64,000 nucleotides of DNA from Escherichia phage vB_EcoM_G4498. The stretch is from sequence record NC_054918.1; one strand, given 5' to 3'. Of this stretch, positions 11,541-15,502 are shown piece after piece; position 1 is the first letter of the stretch, and every line of letters begins with the position of its first letter. The notes below the pieces were generated by a model. The model did not search any database. It saw only the letters and a list, made by a program, of their open reading frames with translations, and had not been told where the DNA came from. Both the position numbers and the translations under genes were made by a program.

Positions 11541-11742
11541 TTTTCACCTTTTTATTGATATGTCTTTTTCTATAGACGACTTTTTCTCGAGTTTCAAATT
11601 TATTTTTAGCAGTCATAGCTCGAGCCCATAATACAGCCACTTCTTTTGCCTGTAAGTTTAATTCACGAGCAATTTCAATGAATGACTTTCCAGACTCATG
11701 AAGAGTAAACACCACAACCTCAGTTCTCATAATCAATCTCAT
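11527..11742 (-). CDS. hypothetical small protein with helix-turn-helix-like segment (position of T4 24.3)
   Basis: 71 aa, ATG start, SFIEIARELNLQAKEV resembles an HTH. Confidence 0.55.
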   Translation of the reverse strand: MRLIMRTEVVVFTLHESGKSFIEIARELNLQAKEVAVLWARAMTAKNKFETREKVVYRKRHINKKVKNGTV

Positions 11743-11810
11743 GTTATCGAGTTGGTGCCATTATATACATCATTTTCTGATTGTGTTTTGTGTGCTTTCA
11801 AAATGAAGAA

Positions 11811-11826
11811 AGGGGCCGAAGCCCCT
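11811..11826 (-). terminator. hairpin after hoc
   Basis: AGGGGCCGAAGCCCCT stem-loop immediately downstream of hoc stop. Confidence 0.4.
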
Positions 11827-11831
11827 TATGA

Positions 11832-13250
11832 TTATGGATAGGTATAGATGATACCAGTTTCTAAAGCAGTTTTATGAATGATGTATCCATTACGCGATTC
11901 TTGAACATCAACTTCTGGATAGTCTTTCATCATCTTCTGAAGAGTGTAACGATGTAGGTAATATTTACTATCTGGGTCGTCAGTTTTCCAATCTTTACCT
12001 TCTTCGGTCATTTTTTGGATTTCATCCATAACCCACCAACCGCACCAGATATAAGCTGAAGTACGATGTGGAAGAGGATGAACATAAGGTAGTTCACCTT
12101 CTGGTTCTGGAGCAACTTTATCAGTTACCTGAACTTGACCTTCTGCTGTAATAGTTTTGCTATCGTAATCAGTTGCAGTAACGACAGCAGTAACTTCAAT
12201 AGTTTGACTTCCAACAGATGAGGTATCGACAGTATATACGTTAGTTGACCCTTCTACAGGAGAAGAATCTTTCTTCCATGAGTAAGTAATTTGTGCTTCT
12301 TCTGGAGCACCCGTAACATTAGCCGTAAATGTAGCCGAAGCATCTTGCTGAACATTAATAGAAGGAGGAGTCAATGTAACCTGTGGATTCATTGTCTTCT
12401 TATTAACTGTCAATGATACTTCATTAGAAGTAACTTCCTTTTCATTGTAATTTTCAGCAGTTACTTGGGCTACGCATTTAATTCTTTTTACTCCACTTGT
12501 AGTTGGAGTATAGCTAAATGTAGAGTTAGTTTCTCCACCAACTTGTGAATCATCTACATACCACTGATACGTAGCAGACGCTCCATCAGGTTGAGAAGCT
12601 AAGGCAGCAGTAAATTGAACTGGGGTTCCGATTACTCCCGCTGGAGGACTATCAGGAGTTACTGCCAAAGTAGTTGTCTGCGTCTTTTTATTAACAGTCA
12701 GTGACACTTCATTGGAAGTAACTTCCTTTGTATCATAATCTGTCGCGGTTACTTGAGCTACGCACTTAATTGTTTTAACTCCGCTTGCGTCAGGAGTGTA
12801 ATTGAATGTAGTGCTAGTTGCTTCGCCCACAGGAGAACCGTCAACGTACCATTGATACGTAGCGTTTGCACCTGATGGCTGTGAAGCTAAGGCAGCGGTA
12901 AATTCAATTGGAGTTCCAATCACTCCAGCATCAGGGCTACCAGGAGTTACTGCCAAAGTAGTTGTTTGTGTCTTATTTTGAACTGTGATAGTTGTACTAA
13001 TTTCAGCTGTTTCAGGTTCAGATTCTGCAACTTGATTGGTTGCAACTACTTTAATAGTCTTTTGACCGGCAGGTCCTTTTAGTACATAACTAAAAGTTGC
13101 TGACGTTTCTTCCTGTGGAGCGTCGTCTACAGTCCAAGCATATGTAATAGTTCCGCCTCCAGTTTCACCACTGGGTGTAGCAGTAAACTGCTTAGTTTCA
13201 TCAATAACCCCTGTCGGTGTTTTAGGAGTTATATCAACTGTAAAAGTCAT
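11832..13250 (-). CDS. hoc: highly immunogenic outer capsid protein Hoc, with an extra Ig-like domain
   Basis: 472 aa; N- and C-termini match T4 Hoc; two consecutive ~96 aa domains starting TQTTTLAVTP...SNEVSLTVNKK. Confidence 0.9.
   Translation of the reverse strand: MTFTVDITPKTPTGVIDETKQFTATPSGETGGGTITYAWTVDDAPQEETSATFSYVLKGPAGQKTIKVVATNQVAESEPETAEISTTITVQNKTQTTTLAVTPGSPDAGVIGTPIEFTAALASQPSGANATYQWYVDGSPVGEATSTTFNYTPDASGVKTIKCVAQVTATDYDTKEVTSNEVSLTVNKKTQTTTLAVTPDSPPAGVIGTPVQFTAALASQPDGASATYQWYVDDSQVGGETNSTFSYTPTTSGVKRIKCVAQVTAENYNEKEVTSNEVSLTVNKKTMNPQVTLTPPSINVQQDASATFTANVTGAPEEAQITYSWKKDSSPVEGSTNVYTVDTSSVGSQTIEVTAVVTATDYDSKTITAEGQVQVTDKVAPEPEGELPYVHPLPHRTSAYIWCGWWVMDEIQKMTEEGKDWKTDDPDSKYYLHRYTLQKMMKDYPEVDVQESRNGYIIHKTALETGIIYTYP
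12414..12990 (-). repeat. tandem ~288 bp direct duplication inside hoc (two Ig-like domain units, ~80% DNA identity)
   Basis: Two consecutive DNA blocks share long identical runs (e.g. gttactgccaaagtagttgt, ccattgatacgtagc); coordinates approximate. Confidence 0.7.
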
Positions 13251-13259
13251 AAGTTATCC

Positions 13260-13940
13260 TTATTTTAATGTTACGAAAGAAGAGTTGCGTGTTTCACGAA
13301 TTAGAACTGATCCGTCACGGTTAATGTAATAAATTAAGCTAAATAAAGTTTGGTGTGCTGACGCATGTTCAAAACTAGTTGGGTGAGATTTCCAATCAGG
13401 AGTTTCAGCAATCCATTGATAAATCCACCAAGGAACAGTACAGAATCCTGGATTTTTTCCAATCAACTGAAGATTCGGGCTAAAGTTTTCCGGAAGAGTA
13501 AATACAGACGGCTTTTCAGATTCAATAATCTCAGCTACAGCCTGTTCAAATTTTTCTTCAACAAATGGAGTATCTTCAATCAAAACATCGGTATTTTCAG
13601 GAATTTTATCTGTTTCTACTACTTCAATTTTAATGTCAGATTTAACCGGAGAATCAATCAAAAGTGCTGCTTCTGGATTGACTTCTTCATCGTCATATTT
13701 TAACCCCTCTGCAGCATCAGCAGCATCAATTAAGTCTTTAATAGATAACCCATCAGTCTCCGGCATAGGTTCACTAGCGAGCTTCTGGAGAGCTTCTTCA
13801 ATATCATTAACGATATTATCAAAAGATTTATTCTTTTTGACCTTTATACCAAACTGTTCAGCATATTCAGCTAATTTAGCTTTAGCTTCTTTATTATCAT
13901 CAAGAGCCTTCAGCTCTGCAATATAATCTTTATCTATCAT
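13260..13940 (-). CDS. inh: inhibitor of prohead protease
   Basis: 226 aa, same length and position as T4 Inh. Confidence 0.85.
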   Translation of the reverse strand: MIDKDYIAELKALDDNKEAKAKLAEYAEQFGIKVKKNKSFDNIVNDIEEALQKLASEPMPETDGLSIKDLIDAADAAEGLKYDDEEVNPEAALLIDSPVKSDIKIEVVETDKIPENTDVLIEDTPFVEEKFEQAVAEIIESEKPSVFTLPENFSPNLQLIGKNPGFCTVPWWIYQWIAETPDWKSHPTSFEHASAHQTLFSLIYYINRDGSVLIRETRNSSFVTLK

Positions 13941-13953
13941 AATATTTCCTCAG

Positions 13954-13961
13954 TATAAATA
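13954..13961 (+). promoter_or_regulatory. late promoter TATAAATA for uvsW
   Basis: Exact box ~30 nt upstream of uvsW ATG. Confidence 0.5.
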
Positions 13962-13990
13962 TAGATATATTTATTACATGGTATTTAGAC

Positions 13991-15502
13991 ATGACTGACA
14001 TTAAAGTACATTTTTATGATTTTAGTCACGTGAGAATTGATTGCGAAGAAAGTACATTTCATGAACTCCGTGATTTCTTTAGCTTTGAAGCTGATGGGTA
14101 TCGTTTTAATCCGAAGTACAAATATGGCCACTGGGATGGACGAATTCGTCTTTTAGATTATAATCGCCTTCTTCCATTCGGTTTAGTCGGGCAAATTAAA
14201 AAGTTCTGCGATAACTTTGGCTATAAAGCCTGGATTGACCCACAGATTAACGAAAAAGAAGAATTATCAAGAAAAGATTTTGATGAATGGCTTTCTAAAT
14301 TAGAAATCTATTCAGGAAATAAAAGAATTGAACCGCATTGGTATCAAAAAGATGCAGTGTTCGAAGGATTAGTTAATCGTCGTAGAATTCTTAATCTTCC
14401 AACATCCGCTGGTAAATCGTTAATTCAAGCTTTGCTTGCGCGATATTATTTGGAAAATTATGAAGGTAAAATTCTTATCATTGTTCCAACAACTGCTCTA
14501 ACAACTCAGATGGCTGATGACTTCGTTGACTATCGTTTATTCAGTCATGCAATGATAAAGAAAATTGGTGGCGGAGCATCAAAAGATGATAAATATAAAA
14601 ATGATGCACCAGTCGTTGTTGGTACATGGCAAACTGTAGTAAAACAACCGAAAGAATGGTTCTCACAGTTTGGAATGATGATGAATGATGAATGCCATCT
14701 TGCTACAGGAAAAAGTATTTCATCTATCATATCAGGTTTAAATAACTGCATGTTCAAATTTGGTCTATCTGGTTCATTACGTGATGGCAAAGCCAATATC
14801 ATGCAGTATGTTGGAATGTTTGGTGAAATATTTAAGCCAGTAACGACTTCTAAGTTAATGGAAGATGGACAAGTAACTGAGCTAAAAATTAATAGTATTT
14901 TTCTTCGCTATCCCGATGAGTTCACTACTAAATTAAAGGGAAAAACTTATCAAGAAGAAATAAAAATTATTACGGGGCTTAGTAAAAGAAATAAATGGAT
15001 CGCTAAATTGGCTATTAAGCTTGCACAAAAAGATGAAAACGCTTTTGTCATGTTTAAACATGTATCACATGGTAAAGCTATTTTCGATTTAATTAAAAAT
15101 GAATACGATAAAGTTTATTACGTATCAGGGGAAGTTGATACCGAAACCCGCAATATAATGAAAACCTTAGCTGAAAATGGTAAAGGAATAATTATAGTAG
15201 CTAGTTATGGTGTATTTTCTACTGGTATTTCAGTTAAAAATCTGCATCACGTTGTTTTAGCGCACGGTGTTAAATCAAAAATCATTGTATTACAAACAAT
15301 CGGTCGTGTATTACGTAAGCATGGTTCTAAAACAATCGCAACAGTCTGGGACCTCATAGATGACTGTGGTGTCAAGCCAAAATCTGCTAATACTAAAAAG
15401 AAATATGTTCACTTGAACTATCTTTTAAAACACGGCATTGATCGTATTCAGCGCTACGCAGATGAAAAATTTAATTACGTAATGAAAACAGTTAATTTAT
15501 AA
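13991..15502 (+). CDS. uvsW: UvsW DNA/RNA helicase
   Basis: 503 aa, SF2 helicase motifs (PTSAGKS Walker A, DECH box). Confidence 0.93.
   Translation: MTDIKVHFYDFSHVRIDCEESTFHELRDFFSFEADGYRFNPKYKYGHWDGRIRLLDYNRLLPFGLVGQIKKFCDNFGYKAWIDPQINEKEELSRKDFDEWLSKLEIYSGNKRIEPHWYQKDAVFEGLVNRRRILNLPTSAGKSLIQALLARYYLENYEGKILIIVPTTALTTQMADDFVDYRLFSHAMIKKIGGGASKDDKYKNDAPVVVGTWQTVVKQPKEWFSQFGMMMNDECHLATGKSISSIISGLNNCMFKFGLSGSLRDGKANIMQYVGMFGEIFKPVTTSKLMEDGQVTELKINSIFLRYPDEFTTKLKGKTYQEEIKIITGLSKRNKWIAKLAIKLAQKDENAFVMFKHVSHGKAIFDLIKNEYDKVYYVSGEVDTETRNIMKTLAENGKGIIIVASYGVFSTGISVKNLHHVVLAHGVKSKIIVLQTIGRVLRKHGSKTIATVWDLIDDCGVKPKSANTKKKYVHLNYLLKHGIDRIQRYADEKFNYVMKTVNL

Follow-up and report, generated by a model that had tools for sequence, protein, structure and literature searches.

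The hoc gene in the window analyzed here, a 64,000-nt stretch of Escherichia phage vB_EcoM_G4498 (NC_054918.1), encodes a protein that is longer than its T4 counterpart and carries a tandemly repeated segment. This raises the question of whether the locus represents a new variant of this capsid protein, as the original prediction implied when it pointed to an internally duplicated Ig-like domain, or a state shared by many T4-like phages, and by which process it came about. The gene itself is the hoc of a Tequatrovirus, that is, of a T4-like coliphage. The CDS for this highly immunogenic outer capsid protein (minus strand, 11832..13250; five-domain allele) was recognized by its open reading frame, by phmmer and by the existence of an identical deposited gene, and the search against PDB sequences matched T4 Hoc (5vf3_Z) at E = 1.7e-222. 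The window is 99.3% identical across 25 kb to the Tequatrovirus Escherichia phages G29 and G4500, and its gene order is that of T4: the ORFs of 334, 92 and 71 aa, hoc and the ORF of 226 aa correspond to rnlB, 24.2, 24.3, hoc and inh, which places the gene between inh and 24.3/24.2/rnlB, the genomic position of hoc in Tevenvirinae. The phmmer match and the inh and 24.3 neighbors uphold the name hoc given to the gene from the sequence alone, and the lengths then quoted for this Hoc (472 aa) and for T4 Hoc (376 aa) agree with the ORF and with the reference entries (PDB 5vf3 chain Z; NP_049793; 1131 nt for hoc in NC_000866).

In T4, Hoc is encoded by the equivalent gene in an identical setting (inh-hoc-24.3-24.2-rnlB) but lacks a 96-aa unit of domain-2 type which, in the window, lies between domain 1 and the T4-like domain 2. 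As two collinear phmmer pieces cover T4 Hoc (residues 1-114 on T4 1-114, and 189-472 on T4 93-376), the 472-aa protein contains exactly one additional 96-aa unit. The distal Ig-like domain 1 (aa 1-92; 12975..13250, minus strand like all features of the protein) was delimited from the translation, from its alignment with T4 residues 1-92 and from the strands of the AF2 model (residues 4-91, pLDDT ~90). It is followed by repeat unit 1 (aa 93-188; 12687..12974), an A-like domain-2 paralogue that constitutes the extra domain relative to T4, and by repeat unit 2 (aa 189-284; 12399..12686), a B-like domain-2 paralogue that is the counterpart of T4 domain 2. Domain 3 in T4 numbering (aa 285-380; 12111..12398), here the fourth Ig-like domain, was identified by Pfam hits and aligns with T4 residues 189-284, and the capsid-binding domain at the C terminus (aa 381-472 together with the stop codon; 11832..12110) is nearly identical to T4 residues 285-376. 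Within the N-terminal 380 residues, Pfam detected PKD (E = 1.2e-11) as well as Ig_2 and PKD_3 above the cut-offs, with Ig_3, I-set and PKD_4 just under them; the PKD match covers residues 195-267, in unit 2, while Ig_3 and I-set fall on residues 289-373. The AF2 model, with a mean pLDDT of 83, shows four beta-sandwich domains (pLDDT ~90 over residues 1-378) and a C-terminal domain of low confidence (pLDDT ~40-60), owing to a shallow alignment. Foldseek returned as best PDB matches four-Ig-domain fragments of Sidekick, Dscam (Dscam1) and ICAM-5. The capsid end of the protein is well conserved, as residues 377-472 align almost identically with T4 residues 281-376 and the T4 residues reported to contact the capsid (Y293, H295, R300, W309, W310, D313 and the E355-S-R-N-G359 loop; Fokine et al. 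2023, PMC10385173) are all kept at an offset of +96; T4 D246 corresponds to D342. The 472-aa Hoc thus consists of four Ig-like domains plus the capsid-binding domain, compared with three plus one in T4, and the five domains originally counted are borne out by Pfam, AF2, Foldseek and the alignment with T4.

The repeat search located head-to-tail 288-nt copies at 12394-12681 and 12682-12969 with 77% identity, and TRF reported a period of 288, 2.0 copies, 78% matches and a score of 708. When placed in domain register the two units are in frame, share 76.7% of their nucleotides and 79% of their amino acids and differ at 67 of 288 positions; an in-frame tandem repeat of this length and identity is far beyond chance. 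The repeat had been placed at about 12414-12990 with ~80% identity; the repeat stands, with coordinates some 16-20 nt away and an identity of 77%, both trivial corrections. Also as predicted, the translation shows consecutive domains that start with TQTTTLAVTP and end with SNEVSLTVNKK: each unit opens with KTQTTTLAVTP and closes with SNEVSLTVNK, followed by K. The NEVSLT motif consequently occurs twice, at aa 180-185 (12696..12713) and aa 276-281 (12408-12425), both on the minus strand, and a GTT-NAW-AAW-AAGAC context is common to all three domain boundaries. Unit 1 shares 90% of its nucleotides with the first unit of phage FJ1, and its identity ranges over 90-100% when the first units of G4500, HP3 and FJ1 are considered, compared with 78% (80% in amino acids) for T4 domain 2. 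Unit 2 shares 90% of its nucleotides and 92% of its amino acids with T4 domain 2 and is 90-99% identical to units of ESCO58, T4 and FJ1.

This five-domain Hoc is an old, common and ordinary allele, carried by about a third of the sequenced relatives. At least two other GenBank phages, Yersinia phage PYps5T and Salmonella phage UAB_60, carry the complete 1419-nt gene with 100% identity, and Escherichia phages G9062, Ptacy1496 and JK23 carry it with 99.8-99.9% identity, so that none of these five genes differs substantively from the window hoc over all 1419 nt. Their annotations vary among Hoc, PKD domain protein, and capsid and scaffold protein. Frequencies were estimated on 60 records taken at even spacing from the 677 GenBank phage records that matched, which as a collection are biased in favor of isolates. 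The five-domain form (match span of ~1419-1425 nt) was present in 20 of them, AR1, wV7, PST and phiD1 included, the four-domain form (~1131 nt) in 30, including T4, T6, RB10 and PNJ-6, two carried longer forms and the remaining eight were partial or distant matches. Outside these sampled examples, HP3 also has the 1419-nt form. The unusualness implied by the original prediction therefore does not hold. Among the best 120 protein clusters of a metagenome-scale database, 82 measured 371-378 aa, 30 measured 468-472 aa and eight measured 568-570 aa.

Altogether, the hoc genes of Tequatrovirus possess one, two, three or four units, that is, 376, 472, 568 or 664 aa (1131, 1419, 1707 or 1995 nt). Three-unit alleles were found in UGKSEcP1, YUEEL01, T4_ev151 and about 12 others, and four-unit alleles in slur03, FJ1 and Sfk20. 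The number varies by whole units even among close relatives, with one- and two-unit alleles in genomes that are 99.1-99.2% identical over 25 kb. A match in KNP5 spanning 2072 nt was considered as a longer array and discarded, as the RefSeq record contains a gap of 990 N placed exactly over the domain-2 units. GenBank contains many hoc genes that are frameshifted or split: the match spans of FriedrichMiescher, PST, T6 and UFV05 deviate by 1 nt and most of these records show split or multiple CDS, and G29 hoc contains a 55-nt duplication. The gaps and split CDS in some records are attributable to the hoc repeat.

What the number of units means for the phage can be approached from what is known of T4. 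The four domains of T4 Hoc form a fibre of 180 A whose C-terminal anchor sits at the hexamer centre (PMC10385173). The Ig-like domains of Hoc bind mucin glycans weakly, through critical residues that vary between phages, and residues S183/L184/T185 of the NEVSLT motif have been reported as MUC2-binding residues in PNJ-9 Hoc (PMC11853027). Judging from motif conservation, the mucin-related positions are also present in the 472-aa protein, which contains NEVSLT twice together with E29, G33 and D342. By analogy with the T4 fibre, the extra unit would add ~45 A of reach, roughly a quarter of the T4 length, and the second NEVSLT site would add glycan-binding valency, so that the number of domains may affect both the reach of the fibre and its adherence to mucus.

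A serious alternative, to which we assign somewhat less than even chances, is that copy number is near-neutral, with the extra domain lacking a meaningful effect on adherence and the array drifting by recombination in a dispensable gene. The gene is indeed non-essential (PMC10580926), frameshifted or split copies are common in GenBank (G29, FriedrichMiescher, PST, T6, UFV05), and one- and two-unit alleles coexist in 99% identical backgrounds. In contrast, a dN/dS of ~0.13 per unit indicates that the units matter when present, and residues of the Ig-like domains measurably affect mucin binding in the Hoc proteins of T4, PNJ-6 and PNJ-9 (PMC11853027).

Four alleles of 376 aa, those of ESCO58, APTC-EC-2A, C2-3 and D5505, give an indication of how the number of units changes. 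All of them are identical to the window at 567 of 567 nt across domain 3 and the C-terminal domain, and their single units are unit-1-like 5' and unit-2-like 3' of one breakpoint. This description accounts for 67 of 67 informative sites in each of ESCO58 and APTC-EC-2A, with the breakpoint within unit nt 9-35, for 60 of 64 sites in C2-3 (nt 78-93) and for 65 of 66 sites in D5505 (nt 245-270). The three breakpoint intervals include the three longest runs of identity between the two units. The first, of 25 nt (unit nt 10-34; 12941..12965, minus strand, partner 12653..12677), would be the site of the ESCO58/APTC-EC-2A crossover; the second, of 14 nt (unit nt 79-92; 12883..12896, minus strand, partner 12595-12608), that of the C2-3 crossover, and the 55-nt duplication of G29 also starts at this block; the third, of 15 nt (unit nt 246-260; 12715..12729, minus strand, partner 12427-12441), that of the D5505 crossover. 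Since the 5' part of unit 1 is joined to the 3' part of unit 2, an unequal homologous crossover that lowers the copy number is the process indicated, and the ESCO58 and APTC-EC-2A events would be recent, as these two genomes match the window with 99.1-99.2% identity along 25 kb. The four 376-aa alleles thus look like collapses of a window-type allele, a direction that we infer by parsimony. Regarding the suggestion that the repeat is a substrate for expansion or contraction by recombination, these natural collapse products support contraction, whereas clean expansion products of the window allele were not found.

The segE homing endonuclease gene, which adjoins inh in T4 and is absent from the window, was considered as a driver of the collapses through double-strand-break repair beside hoc. 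It lies between inh and uvsW in T4 and ESCO58; however, segE is missing from the collapsed D5505, APTC-EC-2A and C2-3 as well as from the window and G4500, which are uncollapsed, and we discarded this possibility.

The same four alleles can be read in the opposite direction, with 376-aa alleles as the parents and the two-unit allele built up from an A-only (D5505-like) and a B-only (ESCO58-like) allele joined illegitimately at the linkers. Single-unit alleles of types A, B, C and D are all known, and the GTT-NAW-AAW-AAGAC context shared by the boundaries could supply the microhomology. Nevertheless, end-to-end joining would leave the units intact, and what is found is that the first two informative sites of the ESCO58 unit show the bases of unit 1, the D5505 unit ends in unit-2 bases at its 3' side and the C2-3 unit switches midway. 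Moreover, all switches fall within the longest runs of identity, the signature of copy-reducing homologous unequal crossover, and we therefore regard a build-up from single-unit parents as improbable. Microhomology at the junctions may still have been used when the array first arose, long ago.

The age of the units was estimated from synonymous divergence (Nei-Gojobori). Unit 1 and unit 2 of the window are separated by a dS of 1.03 and a dN of 0.137, and the paralogous units within other alleles by a dS of 0.5-1.6. These values far exceed those between orthologues, since domain 1, domain 3 and the C-terminal domain of 16 other alleles show a dS of 0-0.49 relative to the window and units of the same type in other phages a dS of 0.19-0.33. 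The paralogues are therefore older than the diversification of the Tequatrovirus hoc alleles sampled here, and the dN/dS of ~0.13 between them shows that purifying selection acts on each unit. The dS of ~1.0 between the copies contradicts a duplication that is recent or specific to the lineage. As an explanation of the locus, a recent duplication private to the lineage of the window phage, which would make its Hoc a new and unusual variant, has in its favor only the head-to-tail layout and the contrast with the T4 reference. The divergence between the copies, 3-10 times the genus-wide orthologous divergence, the counterparts of either unit in many phages and the presence of two units in about one third of the sampled relatives leave it very little probability.

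The comparison of each unit with its nearest relatives in 19 alleles at the DNA level showed that relatives sort by position. Alleles of the A-B-C-D type are those of slur03, FJ1 and Sfk20, the four units being 74-84% identical in nucleotides to one another in FJ1/slur03. Three-unit alleles are A-C-D in UGKSEcP1 and YUEEL01 and A-B-D in T4_ev151, and two-unit alleles are A-B-like in the window, G4500 and the IMG/VR locus L004 and A-D in HP3. A single B-like unit is present in ESCO58, APTC-EC-2A and T4 and a single A unit in D5505, and single-unit alleles exist for each of the types A, B, C and D. A stricter reading, in which all alleles are ordered subsets of A-B-C-D, holds for these 19 alleles; at the protein level it fails in 11 out of 39 clusters with several units, their first units being mosaic and matching no type well, with small classification margins. 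Mosaics also occur among the alleles compared here, as unit 2 of the window combines B and C (92% B, 86% C) and the single T4 unit, although 90% like unit 2, is mosaic; the single-unit state of T4 may be either ancestral or the result of a secondary reduction. On the basis of these comparisons, the units are best described as position-associated, recombining families.

Lastly, although repeats may confuse assemblers and the 990-N gap of KNP5 sits on the domain-2 units, there is practically no chance that an assembler mis-expanded the repeat in the window, given that the 67 of 288 differences between the copies allow reads to map uniquely, the frame is intact, the 1419-nt gene recurs with 99.8-100% identity in at least five independent assemblies from different groups and hosts, and similar two-unit genes are found in about 20 of 60 sampled records.

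Taken together, these results make it very probable that the locus contains ancient paralogous domain-2 units, with a genus-wide polymorphism of one to four of them whose number changes through unequal homologous crossover. Hoc would act as a dispensable decoration fibre whose C-terminal domain sits on the centre of the major-capsid-protein hexamer with the string of Ig-like domains projecting outward. The two in-frame 96-aa copies of domain 2 are ancient, their separation preceding the diversification of the hoc alleles sampled in Tequatrovirus, and both are kept by purifying selection. Misaligned units would then cross over at short blocks of perfect identity, presumably through the T4 recombination machinery, with the resulting change in copy number, and the window allele would represent the parent type of several independently collapsed 376-aa alleles. 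It is tempting to go further and speculate that the domain-2 array behaves as a domain-level variable-number tandem repeat, in which one to four ancient units are repeatedly lost, and perhaps gained, at the three identity blocks, giving phage populations a standing variety of fibre lengths and glycan-binding valencies that interconvert quickly and tune adherence to mucus or other surfaces in the way of a contingency locus; we consider this extension possible but doubtful.

In bacterial surface adhesins made of Ig-like repeats, the copy number of tandem domains varies through unequal crossover. The hoc array may be compared to them in its head-to-tail in-frame repeats, in the variation of copy number among close relatives and in its chimeric junction units. 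Unlike the repeats of those adhesins, the hoc units are only 74-84% identical, which restricts their crossovers to a small number of short blocks of identity.

Both a variable number of Ig-like domains in Hoc and the exact gene of the window are already known, the former from publications and the latter as a deposited and annotated sequence. Hoc homologues carry from one to 10 Ig-like domains (Fokine et al. 2023, PMC10385173), with 10 in Serratia phage Muldoon and one in PG7 (PMC10385173), and PNJ-9 Hoc has three domains (PMC11853027), a three-domain Hoc being described by Fu et al. 2024. These proteins share with the Hoc of the window a conserved capsid anchor and a variable number of Ig-like domains; however, PNJ-9, Muldoon and PG7 are distant phages, whereas in the case presented here one 288-nt unit is gained or lost in register among phages that are otherwise ~99% identical. 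Klebsiella phage PMBT63, which is retained on mucin, encodes a 468-aa Hoc-like protein with an extra Ig-like domain (Ewertz et al., PMC13435897), although this protein is only ~46% identical to T4 Hoc. The Hoc of Klebsiella phage Marfa (471 aa) has a tandem repeat of its own involving a different domain, with a period of 94 aa from about residue 186 and 81% identity, which was measured by an offset-identity scan, self-BLASTP having given no off-diagonal internal repeats; in its relatives the match spans are ~1358-1410, 1076 and 794 nt. Since the repeated unit sits elsewhere than in the Hoc of the window, the duplication in the PMBT63/Marfa lineage is independent. At IMG/VR loci of more distant T4-like phages, hoc encodes ~279-282, 367-378 or 471-472 aa, plus one ORF of 726 aa. 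Domain gain and loss in Hoc is thus recurrent. The literature search on hoc domain number returned general statements on variation and the PMBT63 case only, with no account of a unit-level polymorphism, recurrent collapses, the 472-aa Tequatrovirus form or unequal crossover in hoc. An array of one to four units that collapses at identity blocks is, nonetheless, hardly surprising for tandem repeats in so recombinogenic a phage.

T4 is the reference for the structure of Hoc, for its use in vaccine display and for the model of mucus adherence. A large share of natural T4-like coliphages, including the therapy candidate HP3, nonetheless carry one to three extra Ig-like domains in Hoc, and results obtained with the 376-aa T4 protein may therefore not apply as such to longer forms. 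Even though the practical value of this observation is modest, the near-isogenic natural pairs formed by the window type and ESCO58, APTC-EC-2A, C2-3 or D5505 are suited to test the effect of domain number on mucin binding and gut persistence.

Some expression signals could also be recognized around the gene. The T4 late promoter TATAAATA has zero copies on the hoc strand in the searched interval 11700-14100, where its sole copy lies at 13954 on the plus strand, upstream of uvsW. A Shine-Dalgarno sequence, AAGGA (13257..13261, minus strand), lies 6 nt upstream of the ATG of hoc, where it overlaps the stop codon of inh (13260-13262). Past the other end of the gene, 4 nt beyond the hoc stop codon, there is an intrinsic terminator (11810..11827, minus strand) formed by a strong hairpin, AAGGGGCTTCGGCCCCTT, and a T-rich tail, and a terminator is annotated at the equivalent place in D5505 and G4500.

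The number of copies of the 288-nt (96-aa) domain-2 repeat unit, two in the hoc gene of the window, varies among related phages, and similar tandem repeats are found beyond its close relatives. The 568-aa hoc product of Escherichia phage T4_ev151 (LR597660) carries three units in the order A-B-D, following the unit families named after the four-unit alleles of FJ1 and slur03, whereas T4 hoc possesses a single unit; at this locus, T4_ev151 thus either does not simply derive from T4 or has gained its allele by recombination. In the Klebsiella phage Marfa (MN044033), Hoc contains a tandem repeat with a period of 94 aa starting at about residue 186 and with 81% identity, and the match spans in its relatives imply five-, four- and three-domain hoc alleles. 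In these Klebsiella T4-like phages, however, the duplicated Ig-like domain of Hoc differs from that of the window.

Several records contain an apparently broken hoc gene. Escherichia phage G29 (MK327940) shares first place as the genome nearest to the window, with 99.3% identity across 25 kb. Its hoc is that of the two-unit close relative G4500, the sole difference being a stretch of 55 nt in unit 1 (hoc nt 355–409) that is perfectly duplicated in tandem; the duplication begins at the 14-nt block identical between units 1 and 2. This duplication causes a frameshift that splits the gene into two annotated CDS. Either it is an error of assembly, or the gene was knocked out, in nature or in the laboratory. 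Smaller differences in length are widespread. The hoc matches in GenBank measured 1420 nt in FriedrichMiescher and PST, 1418 nt in UFV05 and UPWr_E2, 1132 nt in T6 and 1117 nt in T2, and many matches deviated from the length of the intact gene by a single nucleotide, in one direction or the other. In most such records hoc is annotated in pieces or as several CDS (“Hoc part 1 / part 2”, “x2”); in PST it is a single CDS. The pattern points either to frameshifts that arise often in a dispensable gene or to homopolymer sequencing errors. In the RefSeq record of Shigella phage KNP5 (NC_055713), a gap of 990 N (at about 1730–2720 of the extracted locus) stands in place of the end of the N-terminal Ig-like domain and of the hoc repeat units, and the Hoc-like head decoration annotation covers only the 3' 588 nt.

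Next to hoc, inh (13260–13940, minus strand) and uvsW (13991–15502, plus strand) are separated by 50 nt (13941–13990). The GIY-YIG homing endonuclease gene segE lies between these two genes in T4 and ESCO58, and only the 50-nt gap is present in the window, G4500, D5505, APTC-EC-2A and C2-3; among these seven phages, no correlation was observed between the number of hoc units and the presence of segE. An exact T4 late-promoter motif, TATAAATA, is located on the plus strand at 13954, and uvsW begins 37 nt downstream of it; no copy of this motif was detected on the hoc strand from 11700 to 14100. Two plus-strand ORFs of 112 and 97 aa (13365–13703 and 13633–13926), antisense within inh, are of low complexity and most likely spurious.

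Some record labels are at odds with the sequences they describe. MG010123 (“Staphylococcus phage SAJK-IND”, 32 kb) harbors a complete Tequatrovirus hoc gene with 93% identity, probably because the entry is mislabelled or contaminated, and the taxonomy line of the 168-kb T4-like Escherichia phage HP3 (NC_041919) reads “Rosemountvirus”. One cluster of 472-aa Hoc proteins is named “endonuclease [Shigella sonnei]”, and many others bear the name “PKD domain-containing protein [Escherichia coli]”, the latter indicating phage sequence within bacterial assemblies.
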